IMG/VR virus record: IMGVR_UViG_3300047319_000798 | Span: 1-64,000 of that record | DNA: 64,000 nt | Reading direction: 5' to 3' (one strand) | Origin: a virus | Part shown: piece by piece, positions 1,040 through 63,162 of the stretch | Position numbering within the stretch: position 1 is the first letter of the stretch | Layout of the letters: each line of letters begins with the position of its first letter | Position numbers and translations under genes: made by a program | The notes under the pieces: model-generated | What the model saw: the letters and a program-made list of their open reading frames with translations, nothing else | What the model was told of the DNA's origin: nothing | The model's database searches: none

Positions 1040-1096
1040 TTGACTATTTGTAACTGAGCGTCTATGTAGGGAAAGAACGCAGCCGAATTGGCGGCT
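1040..1096 (+). promoter_or_regulatory. sigma70-type promoter plus AATTGG-loop hairpin
   Basis: TTGACT(1040)-N17-TATGTA(1063); AGCCG-AATTGG-CGGCT at 1081-1096. Confidence 0.8.
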
Positions 1097-1121
1097 TGCG
1101 CCTTTTCTAAAGGCGGTCTAA

Positions 1122-1796
1122 ATGAGATACAGGTACATCGTTCACGCCAGTGATCTGGACGGCGCCAAGCTGTTGATTGATCGCGGATATGAGGTGGCGA
1201 TATCTATGCTACCTGATGAGGAGCTAGAGCCAGAGCCTGAGTCTGAACTCAAGCCAGAGCCTACATATGCGCCCTCGTTCTTACCTGATCCCCCTAAGCC
1301 CAGGATCAAGCGCGATCTTCCTGCCCTAGAAAAGATGATGAACTGGGGCACGATCAAAGCGGCGCTTAGCGTTCTTCAGGATGGTAAGCCCCATCGGGCT
1401 AGTGAGCTGGGGCAGGAGTTTGAAATCCCAGGCCAGCCGGGAACTTACTTTGCGCCCGGTTCCGTTGCTTCAGCCGCTGGGAAATTGGCTGCCGTTGGAG
1501 GAATTATCAGACCTAAAGCGGGGTATTGGCAGTTGGCCAACGGGGTATCGGCCTTTGAGTCTGTACCCCCGCGCGTTCGCCATACTCGCGTTGTGTTACC
1601 AGATGGGTTAACCTCTCCTGGCGTGATTATGGCGTTTGTGAAGAGCATGTCTGGCGATGTTTCGCGCAGGAATATTGTGAAGCACTGTGAGGGCATGGGG
1701 CTCAAGTTTGTGACTGTAAAGCGCGCCCTTAGCTCGCTAGTGTCAACCCGCAAACTGGAGAGGATGCCTGATGGAACATTTCGGTTGGTACAGTAA
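1122..1796 (+). CDS. hypothetical protein with probable winged-HTH domains
   Basis: 224 aa directly after promoter; two wHTH-like ends (GGIIRPKAGYWQL; RKLERMPDGTFRL). Confidence 0.6.
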   Translation: MRYRYIVHASDLDGAKLLIDRGYEVAISMLPDEELEPEPESELKPEPTYAPSFLPDPPKPRIKRDLPALEKMMNWGTIKAALSVLQDGKPHRASELGQEFEIPGQPGTYFAPGSVASAAGKLAAVGGIIRPKAGYWQLANGVSAFESVPPRVRHTRVVLPDGLTSPGVIMAFVKSMSGDVSRRNIVKHCEGMGLKFVTVKRALSSLVSTRKLERMPDGTFRLVQ

Positions 1797-1812
1797 CTGG
1801 AAAGGAGGAAGA

Positions 1813-2505
1813 ATGAAAGCCACAGGACAACACGCTAAGCTGTTGGTTGAGTCAGCAGCGGCGCAGTATGGTATTCGCAGCCAAGTTGACGGCCATGGTA
1901 AATCCCACTGGATTGTTAAGTGTACTGAGTGCGGTACAGAAAAGAGCGTTTTTAACGCCTCAGTAAACGACTCCAATTGGTTGGTCAACCACTTCACCAA
2001 ACACGGCTGGGTCTTCGACCGTAAGGTGGCGCAGTACTGCTCCACTACGCATGCCCGTGAAGCCAAAGAACGTCAACGCCAACTTAGAAAGGAGGAAGAG
2101 ATGAAACACGAACCAACCCCGCCACCAGCACCAGTTCAAGGAGTAGAGTCAGTGAGTGTAGTACCCCCAATTGGGCCGGACCCCAAGATCGTGCGCCAGG
2201 TAATCACCTTGCTCAACGATCACTTCAATAGCACCAAGCGGCTCTATGAGCCGGGATGGGATGACGCCCGGGTGGCTAAGGAGTCACAAGCTTCGCTGGA
2301 GTTCGTTACCAAGTATCGGCGCGAGGGCTATGGTGAACTGGCGGAAGACCCGCAGATTGCTCAGTTTCGCGCTGATCTCAAGGCTATGGGTGAACTTTAC
2401 CATCAGTCACTAAAGAGCCTAGAACAGTCTTTTGCCCAACAGCTGGGCGAGATGAACTCGCGGCTAGAGCGGTTAATGTCGTTGCGACCCAAGGCAGGAG
2501 GGTGA
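1813..2505 (+). CDS. hypothetical protein (Cys motifs, C-terminal coiled coil)
   Basis: AGGAGG SD before ATG 1813; CTEC motif. Confidence 0.7.
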   Translation: MKATGQHAKLLVESAAAQYGIRSQVDGHGKSHWIVKCTECGTEKSVFNASVNDSNWLVNHFTKHGWVFDRKVAQYCSTTHAREAKERQRQLRKEEEMKHEPTPPPAPVQGVESVSVVPPIGPDPKIVRQVITLLNDHFNSTKRLYEPGWDDARVAKESQASLEFVTKYRREGYGELAEDPQIAQFRADLKAMGELYHQSLKSLEQSFAQQLGEMNSRLERLMSLRPKAGG

Positions 2506-2732
2506 AATGTCCGACGAGCGGCAAGGTGCGGCATACCAGCCGCAGAACTGCCGCGAAGCATATTCAGAGCCTACAGGGCGCGGGGAAGACGGCCCCGCGC
2601 GTTTACGCCTATCGCTGTCGGTATTGCGGCGGCTGGCATATCGGGTATCGTCATCTCACCGATGGCGACCGGATTAGTGAGCTGTTGCGTCGTGCAACAG
2701 AGCGCGCAAACAGGAGGAAAAGTGATGACTGA
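2502..2732 (+). CDS. small zinc-finger-like protein
   Basis: C..SGK...YRCRYCGGWHIG; GTGA overlap and GGAGG SD. Confidence 0.7.
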   Translation: MKCPTSGKVRHTSRRTAAKHIQSLQGAGKTAPRVYAYRCRYCGGWHIGYRHLTDGDRISELLRRATERANRRKSDD

Positions 2733-2937
2733 TCCCAATGTAATCTTGGAGTGCATTCACGCCGATATAAGCGAAACGCTCCATGAGGAGATATCCAAGC
2801 TAGTGGTCGAAGAGGCGGAGAAGGTGTTCAAGGAGTACGAGAGTGAGGTCAGGGCTTTGATTCACGACATCATCCATCTTGTGATGGATGATTTGAGAGG
2901 GGAGCCCAAGCCCGAGATTGATGTTGCCGCTGAGTAG
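2725..2937 (+). CDS. small acidic hypothetical protein
   Basis: AGGAGG SD before ATG 2725. Confidence 0.6.
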   Translation: MTDPNVILECIHADISETLHEEISKLVVEEAEKVFKEYESEVRALIHDIIHLVMDDLRGEPKPEIDVAAE

Positions 2938-2967
2938 AATTATCTTGGGGTGACTGTAACTTGGGGG

Positions 2968-3026
2968 TTGACTTGTATTGGGTCAGCCCCCTATGTTACT
3001 CCTACCGGCCCAATCGGGGACCGGTT
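2968..3026 (+). promoter_or_regulatory. sigma70-type promoter plus AATCGG-loop hairpin
   Basis: TTGACT(2968)-N18-TATGTT(2992); ACCGGCCC-AATCGG-GGACCGGT, loop 3012-3017. Confidence 0.75.
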
Positions 3027-3038
3027 TGGAGAACAGTC

Positions 3039-4106
3039 ATGAAAAAGGGTAAGTCACTTGTTGACCTGGCGGCTGAGATTGAGCGCCAGCATCGAGTCAA
3101 GCGGGACTTTCAAGTCCCCACACAGCTTATGGAGTTGGACCCAGAATTGCAGCTGGTGTTCGGTGAGCATCACTTTCCGGTTCAAGACCTGGCTCACAGC
3201 CAGATTGCGGAGCGGCTCAAAATTCCGGGTGCGTATTACCGGCGGATGCGCACCGACAATCCGGAGCTGCTGCGCTCCAACGTGAACACGTGGTGGAAGG
3301 AGGAACCCGCCAAGTGCATTGTGCGCACGCTCGACGGCGGCGCGCGGGCCTATCTCTCCGACAGCTATCGGCGGTTCGACAATGTCGATCTGGCTGAAGT
3401 GGTTCTGCCGGTCTTGACCGAGCTCAACCTCAACATCATATCGGCGGAGATCACTGAGCGTCGCCTTTACATCAAGGCGGTGGATCAGAACATTGAGGCG
3501 AAAGTGCCCACGGGTAAGGCGCTGGGCGACGGCACCCACGAGTTCTTCGATTGTCTTTCGCCCGCGCTGCAGATCAGCAACAGCGAAGTGGGCCTGGGCG
3601 CGCTATCGATTGAAATTGGCACACTGACTAAGATGTGTACCAACCTGGCCTGGATGTCGGGCAAGGGTATGCGCAAGTGGCACATCGGCAAATCGGACGC
3701 CGGTGAGGACATCGAGCGGCTGCTCACCGACGAAACGCGCAAGGCCAGCGACAAGGCGGTCTATATGACCATGGTCGATGTGGTCAGGAACGCCTTCAAT
3801 GAGGAACGGTTCGGCGCTATGGCCGCTGAGATCGCGGGCAGCTCCAAGCGCAAAATCGAAGCGGACCCGGCGGCGGTTATTGAGCTGGTGGCTGAGCGGT
3901 TCTCCATGAACAAGGACAGCCGCGCCTCTGTGTTGCGCCATCTGATCGAGGGCGGCTCACTGACCCAGTATGGTCTGGCCAACGCGATCACGCGGACGGC
4001 GGAGGATGAAGCCTCCTACGATACCGCCACTGACTACGAGAAGGCCGGTGGAACGATCATGATGCTGTCGGAGGACGACTGGAAGGAATACGCCAAAGCG
4101 GCGTAA
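3039..4106 (+). CDS. DUF932-like protein
   Basis: RAYLSDSYRRFDN, ISNSEVGLG, CTN and H motifs; GGAGA SD before ATG 3039 (ORF-track start 2961 lies in the promoter). Confidence 0.75.
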   Translation: MKKGKSLVDLAAEIERQHRVKRDFQVPTQLMELDPELQLVFGEHHFPVQDLAHSQIAERLKIPGAYYRRMRTDNPELLRSNVNTWWKEEPAKCIVRTLDGGARAYLSDSYRRFDNVDLAEVVLPVLTELNLNIISAEITERRLYIKAVDQNIEAKVPTGKALGDGTHEFFDCLSPALQISNSEVGLGALSIEIGTLTKMCTNLAWMSGKGMRKWHIGKSDAGEDIERLLTDETRKASDKAVYMTMVDVVRNAFNEERFGAMAAEIAGSSKRKIEADPAAVIELVAERFSMNKDSRASVLRHLIEGGSLTQYGLANAITRTAEDEASYDTATDYEKAGGTIMMLSEDDWKEYAKAA

Positions 4107-4135
4107 GCCACCCTCCACTACTGAGGCCAAACAAG

Positions 4136-4172
4136 GGGCCAGAGCGATGAAACGCTCTGGCCCTTTACTTTT
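4136..4172 (+). terminator. intrinsic terminator
   Basis: GGGCCAGAGCG-ATGAAA-CGCTCTGGCCC then TTTACTTTT. Confidence 0.8.
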
Positions 4173-4254
4173 GGCTATGTTACGCTATATTTCAATAGAC
4201 CCTGGTACACCGTGGCCCCTGTACCGTACTGGGTTGAAACAGGAGTATGATAAA

Positions 4255-4542
4255 GTGAAAACCAACACCAAGCTAAAGGGGGCACCTAAAGCTGAGATCA
4301 AGCGTCGTGGCCCTGCTACACTCGATTCAGAGGAAGCACGGAGGCGCATCAACATCCGCTGGGACCGCCCGGGCGCGCGTGAAGCGCAGTCGGTGGCTGT
4401 GCGTGCGCGCCTAGCCGCGAAGGCGAAGGAAGAGGCCAAGGCTGAGCGCGCGGCTAAGCGCGCCGCTAAGGTTGAAGCCGCTAAAGCTGAAGCCGCTAAG
4501 GCTGAGCGCGCTGCCAAGCGAGCGGCGCGTAAGGCTGCCTAG
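4255..4542 (+). CDS. small basic Ala/Lys/Arg-rich protein (histone-like tail)
   Basis: AGGAG SD at 4241, GTG 4255; repeated AKAERAAKRAA. Confidence 0.65.
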   Translation: MKTNTKLKGAPKAEIKRRGPATLDSEEARRRINIRWDRPGAREAQSVAVRARLAAKAKEEAKAERAAKRAAKVEAAKAEAAKAERAAKRAARKAA

Positions 4543-4701
4543 AAGCAGCCGCCTGTAGGGCTGTACAGCCCTGATACAGAAAGTCAGCGGAGGGGGTTCC
4601 CTCGCTGATCTCCCGCGCTGTCGGAAGGGAGGCTGGCAGCGCGGGAACCTTGCCGCCATCACACAATCACGCTATACCCCCAGGCTTGGGAGGCAACCGG
4701 T

Positions 4702-5154
4702 GTGCGTGATGGCGGTTTAAGGGCTGAGTTCCGCAAACGGTTTCCAGGGTGGCAGTGGACATCCATCGAGACGTTCACGGTCCCCGGTGTTCCAGATTCA
4801 GAGTTCATCACCCCTGACGGGGTTCAAGGCTGGATAGAGTTCAAGCGGGTCACTGAGTGGAAGGTGACGTTTGAGCCGTTTCAACCCGCGTGGATAGACC
4901 GGCGTGCACGCTATGGCGGGCGGGTCTGGGTGGCTGTGCGCCGTAAGCCCAGTGCCAAGAAGTTTGCGGGCGAGGATCAGCTCTGGATGATCCCGGGCCG
5001 ACATGTCTTGCAGCTGTCTCATGAAGGCTTGCGACCATTCGGCTTCGCATACCAGACTGAGACGCAAGGCCCCGCTAGCTGGGATTGGGAATGGGTGGAA
5101 GGGCTGCTCAGGTCATCGCCATCGACTAGACTGGACTTGGCGAGGGCAAGCTGA
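4702..5154 (+). CDS. PD-(D/E)xK nuclease (VRR-NUC/Holliday junction resolvase-like)
   Basis: GVPD...WIEFK...Q..W...R...GG motif pattern. Confidence 0.75.
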   Translation: MRDGGLRAEFRKRFPGWQWTSIETFTVPGVPDSEFITPDGVQGWIEFKRVTEWKVTFEPFQPAWIDRRARYGGRVWVAVRRKPSAKKFAGEDQLWMIPGRHVLQLSHEGLRPFGFAYQTETQGPASWDWEWVEGLLRSSPSTRLDLARAS

Positions 5155-5660
5155 TGGCGTGGTTACTTGCGCGGACGCTAGCCCAACAAGAGTACCAGAT
5201 ACGTGATCGGCTGATCAGCAGTTCATTGGGTGCCTATGTACCATCGCGCCGTCTTTTGGTCTATCCGCGCCATACTCGAAAACCCCGCGCCGTTCGTTAT
5301 CCATTGTTTTCTAGGTACTTATTTATTTGGATTGATGATGTTTGGGCCGATTATTCAATAATGTGCTCTGTGTCAAGGAATATATGGACTGTCCGAAATC
5401 AAGAAAATGAGTTTGTCTACGTAAGTGATAAGGATATTGACCGATTGGCAGCACGCGAAGCGGGCGGGGAGTTTGATCAGAGGCATGAGGGCGACGACAT
5501 TAGATTTATGGTTGGCGATTGCGTACTGGTTAAGAGCGGGCCTTTTGCTGATCTGCGCGGCGTGGTTCAACAGTTTATTCATCCAAAGCGTAAGTGTCGA
5601 GTGGACCTACCTAATTGCTCATTGGAAGTGGGGATTGACCTTCTGGAGCTGGCCAGCTAA
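5154..5660 (+). CDS. NusG/RfaH-family transcription antitermination factor
   Basis: NGN domain (W....T...QE...PLFSRYLF) and KOW domain (FMVGDCVLVKSGPFADLRGVV). Confidence 0.88.
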   Translation: MAWLLARTLAQQEYQIRDRLISSSLGAYVPSRRLLVYPRHTRKPRAVRYPLFSRYLFIWIDDVWADYSIMCSVSRNIWTVRNQENEFVYVSDKDIDRLAAREAGGEFDQRHEGDDIRFMVGDCVLVKSGPFADLRGVVQQFIHPKRKCRVDLPNCSLEVGIDLLELAS

Positions 5661-5663
5661 CTT
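5635..5663 (+). promoter_or_regulatory. candidate late promoter overlapping the NusG stop codon
   Basis: TTGACC(5635)-N17-TAACTT(5658), followed by a structured leader before terminase. Confidence 0.55.
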
Positions 5664-5790
5664 CGCCGTTGGGTAAGAGCCGAGGTGCGGATTCGTTCCG
5701 GCACCCGTTGCCTGGCGGAGCCTGGAAATGATTATCCAGGACGGTGGGCTATTGCGTCAATACTGTCGCGCCCGAACCACTGGGTCGATT

Positions 5791-6153
5791 ATGGCCGACG
5801 GCGACAGTGGTCCTCCACTGGTCATCGATCTCCGGCTGAAGCCGGATGCATCACCCCTAGACTTTCTCACGGCCATGTATCGCCATCCCGGCGTTCCGTT
5901 AGGGATGCGTTTGACAGCGGCGCAGAACGCGGCGCAGTATGTTCACCCAAGGCTTGTAGCTATCGCGGCGGTTAGCCCGGGCGGCGAGCGGTTTGAGATC
6001 AAGGGCGGCTTACCCGCGCTACCCGGCGCGCCAACCATAATGCCGGGCAGAGAGGGTCCGATCATTGATGCTAAAGCAACAGTGATTGAACCAACACCAA
6101 TGAAGAAGCCGATCAAGCCAAAGACCCCGGCGGATGAGCCGGTTGATCCGTGA
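5791..6153 (+). CDS. putative terminase small subunit
   Basis: Immediately upstream of TerL; SPLDFL..MY....R..AA..AAQYVHPRL motif. Confidence 0.65.
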   Translation: MADGDSGPPLVIDLRLKPDASPLDFLTAMYRHPGVPLGMRLTAAQNAAQYVHPRLVAIAAVSPGGERFEIKGGLPALPGAPTIMPGREGPIIDAKATVIEPTPMKKPIKPKTPADEPVDP

Positions 6154-7493: not shown

Positions 7494-7792
7494 TGACGAT
7501 CAACAAAAGGGCAATCGAATTTCATCGCCTTGCGGCGGCGGCGCTTTACGCTGCTGGGGATGCGCATGCCGCAGTGATTGATGCGAAGGATATCAAACAG
7601 GCTAGAGCGCTGGCAATTACAGCCCATCAATTGGGGTTGGAGGCAGCGCTGAAATCTGATACAGCCGCTGCGGCTACAGCAGGTGCGCCAGCCGCCAAGG
7701 AATGGGTCAATCCGCCGCTGCCCCAGCGAGCGCCCGACCCACCGCCAAAGAAGCAAGAGCCGGTAGAGGGGCCGGATAACCCGCGTGCCTGA
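7493..7792 (+). CDS. Ala/Pro-rich hypothetical protein
   Basis: Translationally coupled on both sides. Confidence 0.55.
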   Translation: MTINKRAIEFHRLAAAALYAAGDAHAAVIDAKDIKQARALAITAHQLGLEAALKSDTAAAATAGAPAAKEWVNPPLPQRAPDPPPKKQEPVEGPDNPRA

Positions 7793-11128: not shown

Positions 11129-11139
11129 AGGAGACACTC

Positions 11140-19034: not shown

Positions 19035-19074
19035 ACCCGCTGCCCTGTCGCGGAGGGCGGCGGGTTCGCTTTTT
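19035..19074 (+). terminator. intrinsic terminator after MCP
   Basis: ACCCGCTGCCCT-N7-AGGGCGGCGGGT then TCGCTTTTT. Confidence 0.7.
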
Positions 19075-23254: not shown

Positions 23255-23317
23255 AGCCGCTTTCGCCTCTGACTCCATTGAGTCAGGGGCGACCTTCATT
23301 TGTTAAAGGAGGCTACC

Positions 23318-48560: not shown

Positions 48561-48592
48561 GAAAAAGGGCGGAGGCCCGATGCCTCCGCCCT
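48561..48592 (-). terminator. intrinsic terminator
   Basis: Minus strand AGGGCGGAGGC-ATCGG-GCCTCCGCCCT then T-run. Confidence 0.8.
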
Positions 48593-48618
48593 GTAACTAA
48601 CCCGGCGTGTAATTAAAG

Positions 48619-49248
48619 TCAAGTGCCGAAAAGGCCGTCAAGGCTGTCGTCCTTGATGGCGAAGCCCGCAGCCGGGGCCTTGGCCCGGGGAAGCGGCTTG
48701 GCGCTCCAGCCAGTGGCCGTGGCGTGACCGGCCAGAGGCCGCTCGCTGTGCTTGGGCGGGGCTTCGACCGCGAACCGGCCCGCGCACTCCGGGCCTAGAC
48801 CCGATGCGATGCTGCCCGGCACCGTGAGCTTGCGGCCGCAGCGGGCGCAGGTGCCCTCGTGCCAGTACTCAACCTGGTTGAGGGCGCTGGCGGTGGCCGT
48901 GCGCTGGGCGATAGGGGCCAGAGCGGCGCTGAGGAACCAGTTGATAGCCTTGTAGGACGGGGCCATATCGCTGATTTTGGACTTGGCCGTGCGGCGGAAC
49001 GAATACATGCCGCTATTCGCCCGGGTGATGATGCCCGTGTAGGCGAAATTGGAGTTGTTGTCGGGGCCGGTCATGGTCGACACGAACCAGAGTTCCTTGC
49101 GCGCGCCGTTTTCTTCCTCGTCAACCTGGCTGACGCGATAGGTAAACCGGGTGCCGGTCTTCTTGGAGACTAGGGTGAAGGTGGCGTTGCCGGCCAACAC
49201 TAGAACAGGGATGCGGTCGGCGTCGTTGATTTGGGCCTTGGTGATCAT
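48619..49248 (-). CDS. DUF6011-like zinc-ribbon protein
   Basis: AGNATFTL.S..TG.RFTY; CARCGRKLT.P.SI..GLGPECA. Confidence 0.78.
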   Translation of the reverse strand: MITKAQINDADRIPVLVLAGNATFTLVSKKTGTRFTYRVSQVDEEENGARKELWFVSTMTGPDNNSNFAYTGIITRANSGMYSFRRTAKSKISDMAPSYKAINWFLSAALAPIAQRTATASALNQVEYWHEGTCARCGRKLTVPGSIASGLGPECAGRFAVEAPPKHSERPLAGHATATGWSAKPLPRAKAPAAGFAIKDDSLDGLFGT

Positions 49249-54059: not shown

Positions 54060-54075
54060 CCTGATTCGTTCGGAT

Positions 54076-54387
54076 TCAGGCGGAAGGCGGTAGAACATCG
54101 TCCTCGTCCTCGTCACCATCCTCTTTCATCACTGCATCTTCGCCTTTTATCGCGGTCATATACCCCGTTGTCCAGCCGGCAGCATATATTATGGCGGTTT
54201 CCTGATCACCAAAATTAGCCAAACTGTAGTAAAGGCCCCTTTTGGTAGCCAAAAGCACTTCCCAATTGTAAGGCCCGGTTACGTGCGGACCGTTGTCCTG
54301 GTAAACAAATACGCGGGGCCGTGGCGCGGATAGCTCCGGATCATGTTTACATACAGCCGCCGTGTCTGCCACCATCCATAAACTCAT
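54076..54387 (-). CDS. hypothetical protein
   Basis: ATGA-coupled within operon. Confidence 0.55.
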   Translation of the reverse strand: MSLWMVADTAAVCKHDPELSAPRPRVFVYQDNGPHVTGPYNWEVLLATKRGLYYSLANFGDQETAIIYAAGWTTGYMTAIKGEDAVMKEDGDEDEDDVLPPSA

Positions 54388-54794
54388 TGTTCCATCCTCG
54401 CGTGGTGGCCCCCATCAGCTGGCGTGCCCGGGCCAACCTCGTCCTCTTCGATGATAGGTTTCATCTGCGGGCGCGGCGGAACCACTGTCACGTCATGTCC
54501 TCCGGTTATCGTCGCCCCGGTCACGTGGTGCGGGGCCTTGAGCTTAGCCTTTTCGTCAGCGATTAAAAACTCCAGGTAATGCAGGGCTTTCTCTAGGTCA
54601 ACTAGACCTTTGGCGCGGCCATCTACACTACCATGCACGCGCCAGCGCGACACGTACTTGATGATGTTCCCATCAACATAAGGGATATTGTTGACGTGGC
54701 AGTATTCCATGGGCTGAATAACGAAGCCCTTGTAATGCTGGCCACCAACCTGCCTCTTCAGCTGCTCGTCGCGGTCGCTCAAAATTCCCTCCAC
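54384..54794 (-). CDS. DUF3310 protein (T7 gp1.7-like putative nucleotide kinase)
   Basis: QVGGQHYK..IQP...GNIIKYVSRW...DLEKALHYL. Confidence 0.82.
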   Translation of the reverse strand: MEGILSDRDEQLKRQVGGQHYKGFVIQPMEYCHVNNIPYVDGNIIKYVSRWRVHGSVDGRAKGLVDLEKALHYLEFLIADEKAKLKAPHHVTGATITGGHDVTVVPPRPQMKPIIEEDEVGPGTPADGGHHARMEQ

Positions 54795-55378
54795 ATGGCC
54801 AAGAGTGTCTTGGCGGTTTCATCTGGAAATTGCTGCTGCATAAAGAAATTGAGGCGGCGCAGCACATAGGCGCGGATTGCCCGCGCTTCCTCTGGGGTAA
54901 ACGCGCCCAGCATAGCGTAAGCCGCGTCAAGCGTTCTCACCGCCACAGTCCAGCCGAACCGCGAACCTAGCGTGGTTTCCACCATACCCTCTTCCGCCAT
55001 CTCGATCAGCTCAGCTATCTTGGCGTGCTTGGCCATCTTGCATTCCAGCGGGATATTGAACCCCCAGAACGCGCTCTGGCTGGTCTTGGCCTTGTCCTCA
55101 ACCTCCTGGAACCGACGGCGCAGCTCCGGGTTGTTGCGCTTCACCGGGTAAGGCGGATCACCCGTGATGATCTCGCCGCTATCGTGGAACATAATGTATA
55201 GAAACGTCTCCTGGTCTGGTGGCCCGAATAGACAAGTGTAGACGCGTAGCAACTGCCAGGTATGCTCAGCCACCGTCTGCCGCCGGATAGTGGGCCACGT
55301 GTGGTAACGTTCCACTGTACCTGCGAGGCGCAGGTCCATTACAATCATACGCGCCGCGCCGTTCTGATGATCGGTCAT
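54779..55378 (-). CDS. HD-domain nucleotidase (YfbR/DatZ-like)
   Basis: RYH, VAEHT, FHDSGE..TGD.PYPVK. Confidence 0.82.
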   Translation of the reverse strand: MTDHQNGAARMIVMDLRLAGTVERYHTWPTIRRQTVAEHTWQLLRVYTCLFGPPDQETFLYIMFHDSGEIITGDPPYPVKRNNPELRRRFQEVEDKAKTSQSAFWGFNIPLECKMAKHAKIAELIEMAEEGMVETTLGSRFGWTVAVRTLDAAYAMLGAFTPEEARAIRAYVLRRLNFFMQQQFPDETAKTLLAMWREF

Positions 55379-56484
55379 ACGGCGGTCTTAATTGTATTAG
55401 AGTGCGCGGTCAAGTCTTTTTTCGCGTGACGATGTAACCATTCTATACCGGCTTGTTTCCAATCTGGGGCGTTTACAAAGGTCATAAGGTGGTGGGCACT
55501 GGGCTGATTCTTGTGTTTGTAGAAATAATAGGCGCTGGCCATGTAGTATACATCTTCAAGGAATGGGTTGTTGACGCTGCTGAATGGTATATCATTCCCC
55601 GGGCCAATGGTATGAACCTTGTCAAGGGCATTCCATAACCGTTTGAGGTCTTGATCAAACCTGCCGGCATCACCCATAAGCGGGGTCACCGGCCCATAAT
55701 CCTCTAGCCCCGTGGCTAGGGCGAGGTAAACCTGGTCAACGGTACACTTACTGGACAGTTTAGCGCCTTTGTAAAGGCGTTCCCATACGTCCACGTACAT
55801 ATGGAAATCATTGGTGAACTGCGTGTACTGGCCGACACCTACGCCCACCTTGCTGGCGACGTACTCCTGAAGGAAGGAGAGATGGACGGCGTTGGCCCCG
55901 TATGCGCCCCACAGAATGTCGTTCGACCGGTTGCTCACGGTCATGTCCAGACAGCCGTAACGGATGCGGAACATCACCTGTAGGTTACAGGGCTTGGCCA
56001 GGGTGGTGGTTAGGTCTTCTGGGTCCCACATAGTGAGCACGGCGCGGCGGGTGGTGGGGTCCGCCTTGATTAGCTTGATTACCTCATCGAGCTGGTCGAA
56101 GCCCCAGTGGTGGCGCCAGCGATAGCCGTAGCCATCGGTGATCACCCCTTTATAGCCGAACCGGGTGCCAAAGTCCTTGATGTAGAAGTCCAGAGGCGCA
56201 GCGTCCTCCCGCCCCGCCAGCATCCACATAGCCTCGACCAGGTGGAAGAATGGATTGGCGTTCCGCACAGGACTCAGCAACACCCTCTGGGCGGGTGAGC
56301 GATAAATGGTGGCCACCGGCCCCTCGGGATAGGCGATAACCGGGCCGTTTCGGCTATCCTGCACTTCTCCGTGGCGGAGGAGCAGCATAATGCCACGGGG
56401 CAAAGCCTCGCGAACATTCTCCACAGTGAATCTAAACATGCCTTCCCTCGCCAAATCTCCCAGCTCAATCGCCATACGACACAT
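55375..56484 (-). CDS. thymidylate synthase-fold dUMP hydroxymethylase
   Basis: ANPFFH..E, YGYRW, DQL, TRRAVL.MWDP, KPCN, RSNDILWGAYGAN (Asn = dUMP-type), FHMY. Confidence 0.87.
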   Translation of the reverse strand: MCRMAIELGDLAREGMFRFTVENVREALPRGIMLLLRHGEVQDSRNGPVIAYPEGPVATIYRSPAQRVLLSPVRNANPFFHLVEAMWMLAGREDAAPLDFYIKDFGTRFGYKGVITDGYGYRWRHHWGFDQLDEVIKLIKADPTTRRAVLTMWDPEDLTTTLAKPCNLQVMFRIRYGCLDMTVSNRSNDILWGAYGANAVHLSFLQEYVASKVGVGVGQYTQFTNDFHMYVDVWERLYKGAKLSSKCTVDQVYLALATGLEDYGPVTPLMGDAGRFDQDLKRLWNALDKVHTIGPGNDIPFSSVNNPFLEDVYYMASAYYFYKHKNQPSAHHLMTFVNAPDWKQAGIEWLHRHAKKDLTAHSNTIKTAV

Positions 56485-57034
56485 CCACCAGTTCGAGCAC
56501 CCGCTGAAAGGCTGATTCTCTATCTAGCCGTTCGACCGGCACCCCGATAGCCTTCAATTTCTTGGTATTGGAGCTGATCGAAACAACCTTGTCAGCCACC
56601 AGTCCCGGCTTGAGCGGCTTGTAGTTGCGCATGGATACTACGCGCCGCTCGTTGATATCGGCCTCACACTGCTCGATTGGCGTGGTTAGCTCGATTATAT
56701 GTAAACCAGACGTGGCCCGGTGGAGGCGCGCTAGCCGGTCGATACCATACATGGAGATGATCACGCCCTCGAAGATCACGTGGTTCTGATGGCGGTCAAG
56801 CTCGGCTATCGTGGACATGACCCAGTCCGCGATACCCTTGGCGCTGAAATTGTCGCAACCGCCAGTCGGCGTCTCGTACGGACCCACCACCGCTATGTTG
56901 CTCTTGGTGCTCTGGTAGCCGATGGGCTTCTTCTTGTCGCCCAGGATACCAAGCCACGGCCCGCGCGCCTCCATGACCCGGCGTACCAGGGTGGACTTGC
57001 CCGCGCCGTTAGTTCCCCGGATATTGATGAGCAT
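56465..57034 (-). CDS. P-loop kinase (5-hmdU kinase-like)
   Basis: IRGTNGAGKST, GPYE..TGGCD, VIFEG. Confidence 0.82.
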   Translation of the reverse strand: MLINIRGTNGAGKSTLVRRVMEARGPWLGILGDKKKPIGYQSTKSNIAVVGPYETPTGGCDNFSAKGIADWVMSTIAELDRHQNHVIFEGVIISMYGIDRLARLHRATSGLHIIELTTPIEQCEADINERRVVSMRNYKPLKPGLVADKVVSISSNTKKLKAIGVPVERLDRESAFQRVLELVDVSYGD

Positions 57035-57230
57035 ATATCCACTCCTGGACCGCGTGCGCGGCGGCAAGATACTCTGCGCTGGGCGTCTTGGTGATCTCTT
57101 GCCCGGGCTGATATGTTGCCCAGATGCGTTTGCGTAGGTGGGCGGGCAAGCGGAACCAGTGTTCGCGGCACCCCCACAGCTTGGGTGGCACCGCCTTGGG
57201 GCAACCGGGCCAGTGACAATGGTGGGTCAT
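57009..57230 (-). CDS. small zinc-finger protein
   Basis: HCHWPGC...CREHWFRLP. Confidence 0.7.
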   Translation of the reverse strand: MTHHCHWPGCPKAVPPKLWGCREHWFRLPAHLRKRIWATYQPGQEITKTPSAEYLAAAHAVQEWIYAHQYPGN

Positions 57231-57547
57231 CGGTGCCCCTTAATGTCCATGGCGTGCTTAACGATCAGCGAGGCAAACGCTAGCGCCTCTTCCGGCGGCA
57301 AGGCGAACCAGGCAGTGGGCTTGAAGAAATCCACACGCACCGTTTTGCGATACGTGGTGATGGCGATGTTGAGACCGCCTTCATCCGTGGCATCTAGCTT
57401 ACCCTTGGGAAAGTCGCCAGTGGGGCCGAGTTTGTGCTCACTCATCATTGCCATCCGCAGAAAGTGGTTTGTTGCGCCGATGTTGTATTGGGTGGCTAGC
57501 CGCTCTAGGTGCGGTAGCATGCTGGTGATAAATTCCTCGTCAGTCAC
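57227..57547 (-). CDS. hypothetical protein
   Basis: Coupled ORF; TGDFP.GKL..DEG...DF..P..W. Confidence 0.65.
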   Translation of the reverse strand: MTDEEFITSMLPHLERLATQYNIGATNHFLRMAMMSEHKLGPTGDFPKGKLDATDEGGLNIAITTYRKTVRVDFFKPTAWFALPPEEALAFASLIVKHAMDIKGHR

Positions 57548-57894
57548 ACGCTTATCCTCAACGTCCCTGCTGGGCCGTTATTGTCTGATTCGGCGTTGAT
57601 CAGATAACGCATGGGGGCGACCGGCCAAGGTGCCCGATCAGTAACTGGCCAGGATATCGGCCCTATGTCTGGCAAGCAGAACCGACCACCGGTGCCGCTG
57701 CCATAGGTGTAGCCTATCGCGGCAAACAGTTCCGGGTAATCCTTGACCCGAACCAGTGCGCCGTTGCAAATCAAGTGTTGGGGGCGGATTATCGGCGGCC
57801 ACGGAGCGCGCGGCATTAGCATGAGCGAGGGCAGCCGCACGATAGCGGGCGCAGCGATTAGACCGGCGAAGAAAGAACGTCTGTCGAGGGTCAT
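57544..57894 (-). CDS. Tat-like leader fused to tail-collar domain
   Basis: DRRSFF leader; LICNGA.V....YPELFAAIG.TYG....FCLPD. Confidence 0.65.
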   Translation of the reverse strand: MTLDRRSFFAGLIAAPAIVRLPSLMLMPRAPWPPIIRPQHLICNGALVRVKDYPELFAAIGYTYGSGTGGRFCLPDIGPISWPVTDRAPWPVAPMRYLINAESDNNGPAGTLRISV

Positions 57895-58442
57895 AGGAAC
57901 CACGTGATCATCGAATAGCGTATGCCGGTGTTGACCGGTAGGATTTGATGGGGATACATGAACTGGGGCGGGAACATGAGCGCGCAGCCGCCGCGCAGCC
58001 GGAACGGTTCGTCATCCCAGAACTTGAATTCACCACCAGTGTATTCGTTGTTGAGAGCTATCGACATTGACAGCACCCGGGGCACCATATCGTCGCGGTG
58101 CTGGCCGATGAACTGGCCCGGTTCGTAGCGCAGAATATCGAAGCCGGAATCAGAGCGTGAGGTCAGCGGGAACTTGCCCCTGTAGATGTTGAGAGCACGC
58201 AGGGAGGCGTCGAGCAGGATATCGTCGGCCCGCTTGGCTATCCCGAGCTTAGCGGGCGTCAGAGGGTAGTTGCCCATTACTGCCGCTGAGAGAGGGAACG
58301 TGGTGCAGGTGCGCTCGGGGTAATCCGGCGACGCATTGGGCACGCGCCACTGCTCGCCCTCTGTGACGCTTAAAATTTCCTTACACGTCAGTGGGTCCAG
58401 AAGGGGCTCAGTGACCATGATGAATTCTTTGAGGTCCGCCAT
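57891..58442 (-). CDS. 2OG-Fe(II) oxygenase (prolyl-hydroxylase-like)
   Basis: GGAG SD; RY..G....HRD, LNNEYTGGEF, FP....PH...V..G.RYS...W. Confidence 0.85.
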   Translation of the reverse strand: MADLKEFIMVTEPLLDPLTCKEILSVTEGEQWRVPNASPDYPERTCTTFPLSAAVMGNYPLTPAKLGIAKRADDILLDASLRALNIYRGKFPLTSRSDSGFDILRYEPGQFIGQHRDDMVPRVLSMSIALNNEYTGGEFKFWDDEPFRLRGGCALMFPPQFMYPHQILPVNTGIRYSMITWFL

Positions 58443-58519
58443 CGCTGGTCTCCTATAGCAACACCCACAGCACTTTCTATCCGATTTGCAACACGGGAAG
58501 CGACAGGTGGCGAACGGAT

Positions 58520-58771
58520 TCACCGCTTGTTCCAATACGCTGCCAGGTCAGCAAGCTGGACTGGGGTGGGCCGCGCGATGGTGGTCTTGTCGCCCGCCCG
58601 CTCACTCTTGCGAATTTCTTCGCCAGCGCATTGCCAACACCAGATAGCGTCAGCGTGAGGGGAGCTAACCGCCACCCACACGTCCGCGCCGCATAGGTCG
58701 CAGAACCCGGGTTGCGACTGGACTGGCGGGCTGAGCACATCCTCGCAACGTAGACAGACTAGGGGGTTCAT
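58520..58771 (-). CDS. small Cys-rich protein
   Basis: Three CxxC pairs. Confidence 0.6.
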   Translation of the reverse strand: MNPLVCLRCEDVLSPPVQSQPGFCDLCGADVWVAVSSPHADAIWCWQCAGEEIRKSERAGDKTTIARPTPVQLADLAAYWNKR

Positions 58772-58773
58772 GG

Positions 58774-59433
58774 TTATGCCGCCGGTAGAAGCAACAGCGC
58801 TTCGTTGTGCATATGCGCCAGAGCGCGAAGGCCCTCAATCCCGTCCCTCTTGGCCTCAGCCACCAGTATCGGAAGGCCGGAATCAATGGACTGCTCGATT
58901 TCACCCCGCGTGGCTACCCGGCCCTCAGCGTACCAGTCCACCCGGATAGGCTTACCCAGCCGGAATAACACGCCCTGGCCCGCTTGGAAAGGCTTGGCCT
59001 TGGCGCACTGATAGAGCGCCACCGCGCCGGGGTTGCGCGGGATCATGATGCCCGCCACCACCGGATCATCGGGCATGTTCTTGGCGTTGCGCTTCTCACG
59101 CGGGTTGGTGAGGAACGGACACGCCTTGGCGGCAAACTCGGCACACTCCCGATGGCACGGCGGTTCGGACGTGACCCGGTTGATCACGCACATCGGCCCA
59201 ATCACGTAGATGTTAGACTGGCCCTCCATAGACCCACCGCAAATCCAGCACTTACGGCGGTTATGCGCCATCCACAGCTTACCCGGGCCGATGATGCGAA
59301 AGTCAGGCTCGCCTGTACCGGCGGGCACGGCTCTGCCGTCCTGCATCCAACAGATGAACCACGGCACCGGATAGCCCCGGCCATCACGGGGCAGCCGGGC
59401 AATGCGCTCGGGCATTGGGGGCAGGGCGATCAT
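58774..59433 (-). CDS. Cys/His-rich phage hypothetical protein
   Basis: RGYPVPWF, CWICG, GPMC, EPPCHRECA..A..ACPFL. Confidence 0.7.
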   Translation of the reverse strand: MIALPPMPERIARLPRDGRGYPVPWFICWMQDGRAVPAGTGEPDFRIIGPGKLWMAHNRRKCWICGGSMEGQSNIYVIGPMCVINRVTSEPPCHRECAEFAAKACPFLTNPREKRNAKNMPDDPVVAGIMIPRNPGAVALYQCAKAKPFQAGQGVLFRLGKPIRVDWYAEGRVATRGEIEQSIDSGLPILVAEAKRDGIEGLRALAHMHNEALLLLPAA

Positions 59434-60134
59434 ATGTTGCGTCCTCTTTGACCAAGTGCGCGTTGATCCGCTAGGAACTCATTGAGTGGCTGTGTGCCTT
59501 TTTTGGAATTACAAGGGTGGCATAGGGCAACGCAATTGCTCTGTATGGTTCTGCCCCCCTCAGCCCAAGGAACCATGTGATCACCAACTGGTAACAAGAA
59601 CGCATCGAATACCCCATTACACCCAAGACACTTACCATGTTGGCCAACCGCTGACTGCGCAACTTCAGTATCATAAAACATGCGGCGGGTATCGCGCTCA
59701 ACTGTGCTTTTTACCACCACGAAGAACGATTCAACCTTAGAGTATGGAATTGGCTCGCGGTCCTGGATGTAGGTTCTAACCATCCTCCATACGCGGTCAC
59801 GCTCCGGGCTTCTATCCCCGTTCTTCTTGAACTCATCTTTGTTAGATGTGCTTAACAGCTCCAGCATATCTTTATCACGTCCGATGGGATGGGTTAATCC
59901 ACCCTGTCGACCTTTCCCGCCGCCATCCGCCTCCAAGCCTTTGATATATTGGTCAAGGTACGGATCAATCCAAGGCATTAGGGAATGGGCAAGGTCAATG
60001 GCGGTTGCCCCCGTCAATTCAACAGGGCTATCCATCCACTTTGCTGTTCTCATCACATACATGAATAACTTGACTTCTGGGGGTCGTGGCCGGTTACGGC
60101 TTGGTGTGTATCGAGTTGCTCCGCCTCCGCCCAT
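59430..60134 (-). CDS. HNH endonuclease
   Basis: CLGC...DHMVPWAEGGRT..SNCVALCHPCNSKKG. Confidence 0.82.
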   Translation of the reverse strand: MGGGGATRYTPSRNRPRPPEVKLFMYVMRTAKWMDSPVELTGATAIDLAHSLMPWIDPYLDQYIKGLEADGGGKGRQGGLTHPIGRDKDMLELLSTSNKDEFKKNGDRSPERDRVWRMVRTYIQDREPIPYSKVESFFVVVKSTVERDTRRMFYDTEVAQSAVGQHGKCLGCNGVFDAFLLPVGDHMVPWAEGGRTIQSNCVALCHPCNSKKGTQPLNEFLADQRALGQRGRNI

Positions 60135-60913
60135 CACGCTGCCTCCCTGAATGCCGGAGCGTGGCGCAGGAGTGCCTCGGCGGTATCGCCCCACCCCGAT
60201 AGGTGATGGCGGATTTCATTGGTGTCCTTGCCCACCGGATAGTGCCCGTTCATGTGACTCTTCCACTTACAGAGTACCGTCTCCGCCTCCTGGACCCCGC
60301 ACTGGCGTCGCCCCGCCGCTGGCTCCAGATACTGACCCACGCGCCGGATTAGATCGCCATAGGCCCCGGTGCCCCGGTCGGGGTCCGGTCCCGCTAGCAT
60401 GGTTAGCGCCGCCGCCGGTTCCTTGTACAGCAGGGGAATGCTGGGGGCAAACTCTATCGGCTGGCCCGCGCAAACCTCAAGCATATCCGCCACCTTGAAG
60501 CCTATCCAGGGGCCAAACAGCGGCCACCGGCTGGTCACGTGCTTGATGATCTCGTCGGCGGTCTCAAACGGGTACAATGAGTTGACCCAAGTCTCCGCTG
60601 GGCGGGTGGCGAACATCTCCATCGCATAAACGCACTTGTCGCCCCGGAAATGACGCCGCTCTGTGCCCCGGGGCCAGCGGGTTCCAAGTGGCGATAAACT
60701 ATCGTTTCTTGCCGCTTTTAACATCTGATCCCAATACCGCCCATCGGTGAACTCGGACATGTACGAGGCCGCACCCATATGGTAAAAACACCAGTAGGCG
60801 AATAGCCACCGCCTGAACTGGTCATGGGTCAGGTTTACGCGACAGAGCGCAACATACACCGGGTCAAGATCACCAGTAGTGATCAGGGCGTCGGCGAAAT
60901 CTTCGATAAGCAT
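60134..60913 (-). CDS. amino acid:DNA transferase (aGPT-Pplase2/ADDT, HhH glycosylase-like)
   Basis: GDLDPVY, YWCFYH, RGTERRHFRG, FGPWIGFKVADMLE, ETVLCKWKS..GHY..GKD. Confidence 0.85.
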   Translation of the reverse strand: MLIEDFADALITTGDLDPVYVALCRVNLTHDQFRRWLFAYWCFYHMGAASYMSEFTDGRYWDQMLKAARNDSLSPLGTRWPRGTERRHFRGDKCVYAMEMFATRPAETWVNSLYPFETADEIIKHVTSRWPLFGPWIGFKVADMLEVCAGQPIEFAPSIPLLYKEPAAALTMLAGPDPDRGTGAYGDLIRRVGQYLEPAAGRRQCGVQEAETVLCKWKSHMNGHYPVGKDTNEIRHHLSGWGDTAEALLRHAPAFREAA

Positions 60914-61446
60914 TCCAGTATAACCTCTGCGGCGTTGTCCCGATTGACAACGATCTTGCGCACCCCTAGTGCCTGTAACTTACCTACGTAATTACGGGCA
61001 CGTACATTGGTGCCGTAAATGTTGGATATCGCTAGCTGGTCGCGGGTCTTGCCCGACCGGGCCAGTATCGCGCTGATACAAGTCTCTACTGGTGTATCGA
61101 GCAAAACTAATGTAACGTTCTGATAGCCTAGCGCGCGGAAAAAGTCAATTCCCCGCGTATGACTCATCATACGGATACCTTCAAACAACACGTTGTACCC
61201 GGCCTGGTGCGCGCAGCGCACTGTCTCCAGGTTGTAATCCCTATCCTTGATCGCGTCGCAACCTCTGGCGGTGATCGCGTGATACTTGCCCACGACCACG
61301 AGTGGACCGCCAAGGGTCATCTCGTAGCCGCGCACCTTCTTCGTGGCGTCATCCAGTATCGCCTCCACGTCCGGAGCGGCGGCCATCACCTTGTCGATGA
61401 TGGTCGATTTACCGGACCCGTTGGTGCCGCACACCTGTATGATCAC
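60883..61446 (-). CDS. second P-loop kinase (5-hmdU DNA kinase-like)
   Basis: GTNGSGKST, GKY....GCD, VLFEG; paralogue of 56465-57034. Confidence 0.82.
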   Translation of the reverse strand: MIIQVCGTNGSGKSTIIDKVMAAAPDVEAILDDATKKVRGYEMTLGGPLVVVGKYHAITARGCDAIKDRDYNLETVRCAHQAGYNVLFEGIRMMSHTRGIDFFRALGYQNVTLVLLDTPVETCISAILARSGKTRDQLAISNIYGTNVRARNYVGKLQALGVRKIVVNRDNAAEVILECLSKISPTP

Positions 61447-62780
61447 GCTGCCACCTCCTGACGCATATCCTTGAGATCGAAGGCCTTGCCGCTAGCTAAC
61501 AGGTCTGAGCCACAGGGAGCCTTGCCTGTGGTCTCCGCGCACCGGAGGCAGCCGGAGGGTGGACAGACTTCTAGCGGGGCGAACCCGCCGCCCCTCTTAA
61601 CGTATGTCGGCACACGATGGCCGTGGCATTGGTCTGCGGTTAGGAACTCCGGCCCCATTGAAGTCCACGCCCCGGTCTTGATGGTATATTCGTAGCACAG
61701 GGAGTAGGTCATACCGTGCCGCGTGGCAGCGGCCTGATATCGCGTGTGGCCTTCGCGCCGATATGTCTCGGTGACAGTCCGCTGGCTCCCGGCCTGGTTC
61801 TCAGTGAACAGGTCGATAAAGCCTTGAGCGCGGTTCGCGCCAAAAGCTTTGCTGATCCTTTCCTCCATAGAGGCGCGCCAAGGGTGATTGGCCTCGACAA
61901 ACTTGACGATGACGTGGTTTGCTCCGTTGGCGGCTAACAGCCCAATTAGCTCCTCGATATCCTCATGGGTGGTGATCCCGGGCACAACCGGGTTACACTG
62001 GATGGAAACATAGATGTCGCGCATGCGCGCCTCGCGTATCTCGCTAAAGTGCTGCGCTAGCGTGATCGCCCCGGGCGATAACTTTGCCCAGTCATCCTCA
62101 TGCGGCGTGTTGATCGATTTCTGCATGTAGGAATGGGGGTTCTGGCTCATAAGATCGTAGGCCCAGCCGGGATAGCTCAGGCGGGAAAGGAAGAAGATGG
62201 GGAGGCCCGCGTTAACGAAAGCCTCCGCGCCGCGCTGGGTATTATGGTAATAATCCTCCAGCGACAGGAAGGGGTCTGTAAAGCTGGAGAAATACCCGGC
62301 CTGGGCGTGCTTCATGGTGCCCAGTTGCTTAGCCACCATATCGCCATATCCAATCGGCACAGTGGCCAGTCCGGACCCACGATAGCCGCGATGGCCGGAA
62401 TTGATGTAACAGAACCGACACCCAACAGCGCAATAGCCGCCATAAGGCTGAGTAAGGACAGCGTTCGTTTCACAGGGGCGCTCCCGCTTGCCCTTGATCG
62501 CGCCGTCTCCCTTATTGGAGTACCAGCCGCGAAGGTCTTGGCCCTTGTCGAGCCGAATGTGGGGGATTGGATCCAGATAGATGGTTTGCTCCACCATCTT
62601 ATCGGAGCCGCGCATCATCGATATCTTGCCGTCGCGCGCCCGAATAGAGCGGCCTGTGACCGGGTCATCAATGTGGTTGATGGGACCCAGGATGTCACGC
62701 ATATCGGGGTCCACGCGCATGAAGTAGCGATAAGCCTCTTCCGCCGCTTCGTCCTGAAACATGCCATCCTGGGTTTCCAT
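61443..62780 (-). CDS. radical SAM enzyme
   Basis: CAVGCRFCY (CX3CX2C), SSFTDPF, Cys-rich C-terminus (CHG...CPPSGCLRC...C). Confidence 0.87.
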   Translation of the reverse strand: METQDGMFQDEAAEEAYRYFMRVDPDMRDILGPINHIDDPVTGRSIRARDGKISMMRGSDKMVEQTIYLDPIPHIRLDKGQDLRGWYSNKGDGAIKGKRERPCETNAVLTQPYGGYCAVGCRFCYINSGHRGYRGSGLATVPIGYGDMVAKQLGTMKHAQAGYFSSFTDPFLSLEDYYHNTQRGAEAFVNAGLPIFFLSRLSYPGWAYDLMSQNPHSYMQKSINTPHEDDWAKLSPGAITLAQHFSEIREARMRDIYVSIQCNPVVPGITTHEDIEELIGLLAANGANHVIVKFVEANHPWRASMEERISKAFGANRAQGFIDLFTENQAGSQRTVTETYRREGHTRYQAAATRHGMTYSLCYEYTIKTGAWTSMGPEFLTADQCHGHRVPTYVKRGGGFAPLEVCPPSGCLRCAETTGKAPCGSDLLASGKAFDLKDMRQEVAA

Positions 62781-62794
62781 GTGCGTTCCTCTGG

Positions 62795-63082
62795 TTACGG
62801 CTTCACGAGGGTGTCGATCATGTCTTGCGGGAACCCCTCGTTCTTGTAATATTCGCGAACCTCATCCTTTGTCCAAAGGTCATTGACCCATGGCAGGTTC
62901 ATGTCCTGCATCATGTTATTGAACGCGCGAGCGTAAGGCAAGCCGACAGTGTTGCCCAGCCCGCGCCACATGGTATCGCTAGCGCGCCAGCCCACCCGGG
63001 CCTTCTCTTCCGGGGTCTTGGCGTTCGCCGCCACGCAGAGGATATCGAACAACGCTTCCGGTGTCACGTAATTATCAGCCAT
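62795..63082 (-). CDS. hypothetical protein, first gene of replication/modification operon
   Basis: Directly after promoter-hairpin at 63106-63162. Confidence 0.65.
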   Translation of the reverse strand: MADNYVTPEALFDILCVAANAKTPEEKARVGWRASDTMWRGLGNTVGLPYARAFNNMMQDMNLPWVNDLWTKDEVREYYKNEGFPQDMIDTLVKP

Positions 63083-63105
63083 TGTGTAACTATTCCCTTA
63101 CTACT

Positions 63106-63162
63106 GGTGAACCAATTATCACCTAAGATCGTCAGCATATCTGCGGGTTTCATTTAAGTCAA
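63106..63162 (-). promoter_or_regulatory. sigma70-type promoter plus AATTGG-loop hairpin
   Basis: TTGACT(63162)-N17-TATGCT; GGTGA-T-AATTGG-T-TCACC, loop core 63112-63117. Confidence 0.78.

Follow-up and report, generated by a model that had tools for sequence, protein, structure and literature searches.

The virus record IMGVR_UViG_3300047319_000798 of IMG/VR is 77,970 bp long, is rated complete by CheckV, and has genome ends that overlap by ~140 bp (a repeat at positions 74 and 77901). Our window is the whole stretch of DNA analyzed, the 64,000 nucleotides at positions 1-64,000 of this record; DNA runs show that the phage is present in rhizosphere and soil metagenomes, with no RNA run among those that contain it. 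Across the genome we identified nine sites at which a TTGACT-N17/18-TAnnnn promoter is followed by a hairpin with the loop AATYGG (AAUYGG in RNA), on the sense strand every time. This leader element, hereafter the tag, is real, statistically solid, covarying, and so far undescribed. An earlier note made from the sequence alone had reported six of the sites, and their coordinates and sequences were all reproduced; a whole-genome scan added three that lie outside the window on the minus strand, with TTGACT starts at 65520, 66585, and 67405 (Table 1).

The nine sites share one layout, consisting of an A/T-rich upstream box, (C)TTGACT, a spacer of 17 nt (18 in one site), and a -10 hexamer resembling TA(T/A)GTA; TTGACTTCTGTA also recurs among the promoters, along with the A/T-rich boxes. 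The AATYGG loop begins 43-48 nt past the first T of TTGACT, or 14-19 nt past the -10 hexamer, so that the distance and sense orientation described in the earlier note hold for all nine sites. The stem starts 3-12 nt past the -10 hexamer, and the hairpin would therefore be the first thing transcribed from the predicted start, at about the 5' end of the transcript. It ends 13-25 nt ahead of the ATG. The leader of the predicted RNA is the hairpin and a ribosome-binding site, nothing more. When folded from the predicted start, AAUYGG forms a hexaloop in seven of the nine sites; the minimum-energy fold gives a 5-nt loop at P2968 and a different structure at P63162. Five of the nine hairpins contain an internal mismatch or bulge.

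All leader-bearing TTGACT-N17/18 promoters (9/9) carry the tag, in the sense orientation and at a fixed offset. Judged by the predicted promoters, it marks leader-bearing early and middle units on both strands, and the "early regulon" of the earlier note is a reasonable description as far as predicted promoters can define one. P63162 heads an ~11-kb thymidine-modification and polA operon, P51893 is placed immediately past the polA stop, and a specialized NusG paralogue is the last gene of the P2968 operon.

Table 1. Tagged promoters, related copies, and other features discussed in the text. Positions are those of the window unless marked as genome positions; L125 positions are given in parentheses.
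Feature	Position	Strand	Description	ATG	R1 (bits)
P1040	1040..1096	+	TTGACT-N17-TATGTA; hairpin AGCCG-AATTGG-CGGCT at 1081-1096	1122	19.5
P2968	2968..3025	+	TTGACT-N18-TATGTT; hairpin ACCGGCCC-AATCGG-GGACCGGT at 3004-3025, one C.A mismatch	3039	
P49326	49265..49326	-	TTGACT-N17-TATGTA; GGAGC-AATTGG-GCTCC with outer G/C extension	49248	23.3
P49578	49513..49578	-	TTGACT-N17-TATATG; 12-bp hairpin, loop AATTGG, one C.C mismatch; ATG opens a 54-aa open reading frame	49497	23.6
P51893	51837..51893	-	TTGACT-N17-TAAGTA; AGCGGC-AATCGG-GCCGCT	51812	27.2
P63162	63106..63162	-	TTGACT-N17-TATGCT; GGTGA(T)-AATTGG-(T)TCACC	63082	22.3
P65520	hairpin genome 65463-65486	-	A.C-type mismatch in sense stem		
P66585	hairpin genome 66522-66553	-	A.C-type mismatch in sense stem		
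P67405	TTGACT start genome 67405	-	in divergent control region 67323-67500		
Internal promoter-less copy	60933..60952	-	CGTTGTC-AATCGG-GACAACG, perfect 7-bp stem		18.8
Variant cassette	48566..48622	-	TTGACT-N17-TAGTTA, 10-bp G/C hairpin, 5-nt loop ATCGG, U-run		13.8
Leaderless promoters (probable)	genome 72466-72503, 76168-76205 (L125 9466-9503, 13168-13205)		TTGACT-N17		
Intrinsic terminator	4133..4166	+	14-bp stem and T-run; directly 3' of gene 1 of the P2968 operon; next gene ~4177		
Intrinsic terminator	genome 67058-67040 (L125 4040-4058)	-	after gene 1 of a tagged operon; next gene 67029		
Intrinsic terminator	48592-48566	-	after gene 1 of a tagged operon; next gene 48545		
Specialized NusG paralogue	5154..5660	+	PF02357, 26.9 bits (cut-off 22.2); phrog_6386 "transcription antiterminator"		
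133-aa early protein	genome 65536-65937 (L125 2536-2937)	-	Phage_ProQ_C_like (PF24203), Pfam E = 0.009, below cut-off		
121-aa basic protein	4177-4542	+	pI ~11, Lys/Ala-rich tails		

The loop hexamer by itself is not enriched in the window (73 copies observed versus 69 expected). What stands out is its pairing context. The genome contains 94 copies of AATYGG, and in 15 of these at least 5 of 6 flanking positions pair, versus ~2 (maximum 6) in shuffled sequence, and 9 of those 15 are the TTGACT promoter sites. The composite promoter-hairpin pattern matches the genome seven times and its reversed control pattern not at all; 0.06 matches to a stricter pattern are expected from window shuffles, and the rough product of the separate frequencies predicts ~0.003 sites by chance. 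The motif thus exceeds its frequency in shuffled sequence; a similar frequency in shuffled intergenic sequence was among the refuting outcomes named in the earlier note.

For covariation we used an ungapped alignment of ten hairpins, namely the nine sites and one orthologue (A7). Stem cells are paired in 88% of cases versus 53% in shuffled alignments, no shuffle of 500 reached the observed score, and sliding the pairing register leaves only 28-52% of cells paired. All six inner stem pairs vary on both sides. The loop has a mean pairwise identity of 0.91, compared with 0.39 and 0.44 for the two arms and 0.34 for the spacer between -35 and -10. Five of the six loop positions are invariant in the ten sites and in the close relative L132, with only the Y differing, and the loop-closing pair is C-G in eight of ten. 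A stem that covaries around an unchanging loop indicates selection on pairing in the stem and on sequence in the loop, and the structural selection on the stem suggested in the earlier note is upheld. Its statement that the stems differ completely needs amending, and its phrase "freely varying stems" is too strong. Four sites have the 3' arm GGGCCGCT or GGGCCGGT in common: 67405, 66585, and 51893 share 18-20 nt, and 49578 has their 3' arm. Some sites are therefore paralogous, and the nine are not fully independent. The remaining five stems are unrelated to those four and to each other, yet they pair.

The covariance model proposed in the earlier note was built from the aligned sites (R1). Training sites score 19.5-27 bits, and the best score in 74 kb of distant relatives, taken as the noise ceiling from control loci, is 13.7 bits. 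The next match past the training sites, at 60932-60953 on the minus strand, scores above this ceiling and is the promoter-less copy of Table 1. It lies on the sense strand of the P63162 operon, 20 nt ahead of the start of the amino acid:DNA transferase gene (60913; Pfam ADDT). A variant is found at 48566-48592, where the earlier note had correctly seen a terminator with an ATCGG loop; TTGACT-N17-TAGTTA precedes this hairpin at the usual distance, and it is predicted to serve as the terminator 3' of the gene at 48619-49248.

Collections of viral, metagenome, and genome contigs were scanned for relatives. One close relative was recovered, L132, a 10.5-kb IMG/VR contig with 67% identity in the NusG paralogue, 74% in a 355-aa protein, and 83% in TerL. 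Its sole intergenic promoter is the orthologue of P2968 (L132 3402-3459), which keeps the -35, the loop, and the inner stem (GGCCCAATCGGGG) between diverged flanks. The L132 stem TGGCCC/GGGCCA differs from ACCGGCCC/GGACCGGT in the window by compensatory changes, with outer pairs changed from C-G to U-A type. Protein searches recovered five or six further relatives on short contigs, at 71-95% identity. Run contigs over 48401-67600 have no variant letters at the hairpins and hence provide no natural covariation data.

Beyond these relatives the element was not recovered. PolA relatives at ~40% identity (L126-L131) lack both the motif and the NusG paralogue; the Pfam NusG search of genomes missed the known L132 copy. 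Among 50,697 GenBank phages there is no close DNA or protein relative and no copy of the element. Pattern matches in IMG/VR are at chance level (117 viral loci, 6 with a hairpin, none with two sites), and the 185,579 species genomes of GTDB yield 35 loci, 7 of them with a hairpin, about as many as the fixed closing pairs of the pattern predict. Rfam gives no match at gathering score over the window, and at E up to 5 over the promoter regions it gives three chance-level matches, all away from the sites. Literature searches found no description of the motif, in agreement with the earlier note, which knew of none. A search for CCRAUU loops able to kiss the tag returned nothing beyond the antisense of the sites themselves and a few hairpins at chance level. 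As far as searched, the element appears to be confined to one uncultured phage lineage.

Two of the promoter features hint at the host. C precedes TTGAC (CTTGAC) in seven of the nine promoters, and the -10 is mostly TA(T/A)GTA, without the usual final T, a form that we take to be nearer the alphaproteobacterial than the Escherichia coli sigma-70 consensus. Taken with the provenance of the runs (rhizosphere and soil), this hints at an alphaproteobacterial host.

Promoters without the tag fall into three groups. Three TTGACC promoters have no hairpin: 5635, which is late, 63185 (both as the earlier note reported), and 67447. The ~40-kb late operon is likewise untagged. The TTGACT-N17 promoters 72466 and 76168 also have no hairpin, and because the ATG follows 6-7 nt past the -10 hexamer, their mRNAs are probably leaderless, with no room for one. 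The former drives a gene for a 5-hydroxymethyldeoxyuridine (5-hmdU) DNA kinase helical domain and the latter a helicase gene. AATCGG occurs within the spacer of the 76168 promoter. In the divergent control region at genome 67323-67500 (L125 4323-4500), the leftward tagged P67405 faces a rightward TTGACC-N18-TCTAAT promoter, 67447, whose spacer contains AATTGG and the 14-bp palindrome GGCGCCCGGGCGTC and whose -10 overlaps AATCGG. Here the loop hexamer is thus present as duplex DNA too.

Genes for thymidine hypermodification form a set at window 55375-62780 and genome 72501-75593. Among its members are a thymidylate-synthase-like dUMP hydroxymethylase, three 5-hmdU DNA kinase-like genes, and an amino acid:DNA transferase, as well as a radical-SAM-like 445-aa protein, a 2-oxoglutarate-Fe(II) oxygenase, a pyridoxal phosphate enzyme, and an HD phosphohydrolase. 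The minus-strand part of the set is a single tagged operon, from P63162 to polA.

The strong intrinsic terminators of the early and middle regions are only three in number, and each stands directly behind the first gene of a tagged operon (Table 1). In all three operons gene 2 begins 10-20 nt past the terminator with no intervening promoter. Given the lack of space for one, the downstream genes would need read-through. The terminator at 4133-4166 is kept in L132 (4572-4606) with compensatory stem changes. The arrangement suggests that read-through, whether regulated or partial, divides the immediate-early from the delayed-early genes.

Which protein might read the tag? We identified three candidates, each of them a lead only. 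The first is the NusG paralogue. Its best NCBIfam matches are, in order, UpxY (54 bits, cut-off 100), RfaH, and LoaP (NF033641, 31 bits, cut-off 125), all below cut-off. An AlphaFold2 model has a poor N-terminal domain (mean predicted local distance difference test score, 45) and a beta-barrel C-terminal KOW domain, and was not used further. Directly 3' of this gene are a TTGACC-N17-TAACTT late promoter and an ~90-nt leader (window 5154-5760; L132 5689-6310), in which the blocks GGGTAAGAGCCG, GGCACCCGTT, CCTGG, and GGACGG are conserved in both phages; this late leader is likely a separate recruitment site for the NusG paralogue.

The second candidate is the 133-aa ProQ_C-like early protein, which has an Atlas features score of 0.93 and whose PF24203 family set is common to 29 of its 30 nearest Atlas clusters. 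The third is the 121-aa basic protein. Its core, SxEARRRIxIRWxRPGARxxQSxAVxARLA, is invariant in seven relatives, and it has no match in Pfam, PHROG, NCBIfam, or the PDB. The core presumably lies nearer an Arc-type ribbon-helix-helix DNA binder (a beta-strand and the start of a helix) than an RNA binder.

Orientation, covariation, and position together point to a structure formed in the single strand made from these promoters, most simply an RNA. A fixed loop carried on a stem that is free to change marks a site recognized by a protein or by a second RNA, as with boxB and N, the LoaP hairpin (PMC12691694), and coat-protein operators. The order promoter, tag, gene 1, terminator, gene 2 resembles that of antitermination-controlled early operons, which would favor a tag that loads a factor. 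The reading that we prefer, and hold tentatively, is that a common factor binds the hairpin as a tag on nascent RNA, the likeliest purpose being read-through of terminators. The hairpin would act in cis, as an RNA element at the 5' terminus of each leader-bearing transcript from promoters of the TTGACT type used by host RNA polymerase. Its stem would need only to pair, and the hexaloop AAUYGG, usually closed by C-G, would be the part read. One trans-acting factor, either phage encoded (the NusG paralogue or a small early protein) or host derived, would bind this loop on the nascent RNA, marking early and middle units as one regulon. The factor may then load on the elongating polymerase in a nut- or LoaP-like manner, and the loaded polymerase would read through the terminators behind the first genes of several tagged operons. 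A built-in second effect may be the shielding of the 5' end from 5'-end-dependent RNases. We infer the promoters, start sites, folded RNA, factor binding, and its effect from sequence.

A more specific form of the proposal, that the AAUYGG hairpin is an RNA loading site for the NusG paralogue or for a new small antiterminator working with it, is rather improbable. If true, this would be the first phage case of RNA-directed recruitment of a NusG family protein, with a regulon-wide 5' tag where lambdoid phages have one or two nut sites, and one factor would render all early and middle host-polymerase units terminator resistant.

Several observations weigh against a factor-loading RNA tag. The start sites are predicted rather than mapped, and conservation was examined in one relative (L132). 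Six tagged operons have no recognizable intrinsic terminator, and the late operon contains internal terminators (19035-19065 and 23263-23292) yet is untagged. The NusG gene itself is downstream of a terminator in a tagged operon. An untagged late operon that has terminators, lies right behind the NusG gene, and has its own conserved leader argues that the late leader, and not the tag, is the NusG target. Among the early open reading frames, most of which belong to no family, Pfam, PHROG, and NCBIfam searches recognized no arginine-rich N-like protein or other RNA-binding protein. The tags have no shared boxA (CGCUCUUA-like) partner, as a one-mismatch octamer occurs at only two of the nine sites and at differing positions; nor do the tagged leaders contain an ops-like element (GGCGGTAGnnTG, 12 nt) with two or fewer mismatches. 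Finally, the sense arms of the ten stems have three A.C mismatches (P2968, P66585, and P65520) and no G.U pair. A sense A.C is a G.T or G.U pair on the antisense strand, which accordingly folds as well or slightly better (summed fold energy, -142.9 kcal/mol antisense versus -136.4 kcal/mol sense). The numbers are small, and these strand folding figures give no positive support for sense RNA.

Comparison with known systems bears on the nut-like antitermination suggested in the earlier note. Like lambda N/nut, the tag combines a sequence-specific loop with a variable stem in nascent early RNA near host-polymerase promoters, and the terminators behind gene 1 recall tL1 and tR1 behind N and cro. 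However, the boxB loop of lambda is a GNRA-like pentaloop (GAAAA or GACAA type), whereas that of the phage is the hexamer AAUYGG in ten aligned sites, and lambda has two nut sites versus nine here, all at the extreme 5' end. What stands of the suggestion is indirect: terminators behind gene 1 in three operons, one of them kept in L132, and a NusG family gene. The hexaloop and the absence of a shared boxA tell against a nut site in the strict sense. The boxA-like octamers, each with one mismatch, are CGCUCUUG, which overlaps the 3' arm at P51893 (51833-51840, minus strand), and CGAUCUUA, just 5' of the P63162 hairpin (63124-63131, minus strand). Chance would give ~0.13 of these coincidences, the check was post hoc, and no such octamer touches the remaining seven sites. 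The put RNAs of HK022, of ~65-70 nt with two stem-loops at two sites, suppress termination in cis in early operons. The phage element is likewise promoter proximal in RNA, but is a single hairpin of 16-32 nt at nine sites.

Two NusG paralogue systems offer further parallels. LoaP needs a small UNCG-tetraloop hairpin in the dfn and mln leaders for read-through (PMC12691694). As in the phage, a specialized NusG paralogue is encoded beside its targets, and a short leader hairpin with a defined loop has intrinsic terminators downstream. In contrast, the LoaP hairpin has a tetraloop and lies away from the 5' end, while the phage tag is a 5'-terminal hexaloop; the phage protein also scores far below the family cut-off, and the untagged late operon looks the more obvious NusG target. 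In RfaH/ops and Bacteroides UpxY/opsX, the NusG paralogue is recruited in the leader and recognizes non-template DNA at a pause, and for UpxY a nascent RNA pause hairpin aids capture (PMC11685472). Of the NCBIfam models, UpxY is the one that the phage protein matches best; unlike in these systems, no conserved sequence follows 10-12 nt past the phage hairpin. In phage YuA, nine promoters carry an upstream motif specific to the phage; it lies at -50 to +1 and not in the leader. N4-type promoters are used by a virion RNA polymerase and carry, upstream of the start site, a hairpin on the template strand whose loop is 3 nt. We considered and rejected a hairpin promoter of this type, as the loop here is 6 nt and downstream of a sigma-70-like promoter, and the largest open reading frame (933 aa) lies in the tail module.

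The main rival explanation is a plain 5'-terminal stabilizer, which would block 5'-end-dependent decay (RppH with RNase E, or RNase J) and insulate the ribosome-binding site with no dedicated factor, the loop being constrained merely as a favorable or nuclease-resistant hexaloop. The extreme 5' position fits this explanation equally well: the hairpin is within ~0-6 nt of the predicted 5' end and stops short of the start codon by the 13-25 nt given above. This is the geometry by which ompA-type 5' stem-loops, a few nucleotides from the 5' end and just upstream of the ribosome-binding site, stabilize mRNAs. The internal copy could shield a processed 5' end, and the failure to find a binding protein also fits. 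However, ompA-type stem-loops act by structure alone and need no given loop, while in the phage the loop sequence is under strong selection, with five of six positions fixed and mostly C-G closed as the adjacent stem turns over. A pure stabilizer would account for the position of the hairpin but not for its loop, and we judge it unlikely.

Still less probable, and to about the same degree as the NusG-specific proposal, is a post-transcriptional operator. In this case a phage protein would switch translation of gene 1, or, as early expression gives way to late, an endoribonuclease would process early mRNAs or shut them off, with RegB-, RegA-, or Com-type logic. The short, fixed spacing to the start codon would suit such an operator, as would the promoter-less copy ahead of the amino acid:DNA transferase start within a long operon and the restriction of the tag to non-late transcripts. 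Yet the hairpin is clear of the Shine-Dalgarno sequence and start codon, searches of the early proteins turned up no nuclease and no known family of translational repressors, and the terminators behind first genes would be left unaccounted for.

We give little likelihood to an element acting at the DNA level, either a hairpin or cruciform in the initially transcribed region (on either strand) or a duplex CAATYGG regulator site, that affects promoter escape or represses early promoters. The folding of the antisense strand, with its three G.T pairs, would fit such an element. The duplex hexamers in the spacer and -10 of 67447 and in the 76168 spacer, and the several small putative DNA binders encoded (for example, the conserved 121-aa basic protein), are also consistent with it. 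However, a duplex operator needs no pairing of its flanks, and the pairing covaries; stems of 5-13 bp with their loop are larger than a transcription bubble; strict sense orientation and the internal copy are more natural for RNA; and no N4-type virion or phage RNA polymerase is encoded.

Lastly, a functionless by-product of promoter-cassette duplication, for which the 18-20 nt around the loop common to three to four sites and the shared TTGACTTCTGTA and A/T-rich boxes might speak, is very improbable and already disfavored by covariation, given the low identity of spacer (0.34) and arms (~0.4) versus the loop, the five unrelated stems that pair all the same, and the L132 orthologue that keeps its loop amid a diverged intergenic region.

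The reach of the finding is limited, as the element is known from one uncultured lineage without a host. If a factor does read the loop on the nascent RNA, as we tentatively favor, the tag and its reader would form a compact new RNA-protein recognition pair, in which a 6-nt loop is recognized on any stem. This would extend the short list of leader-RNA tags that alter elongation or mRNA fate (boxB, put, and the LoaP hairpin). Such a tag would illustrate, too, the way in which a phage reliant on host polymerase labels all of its early transcripts, and would offer a route into the early genes of soil phages, many of which are unannotated.

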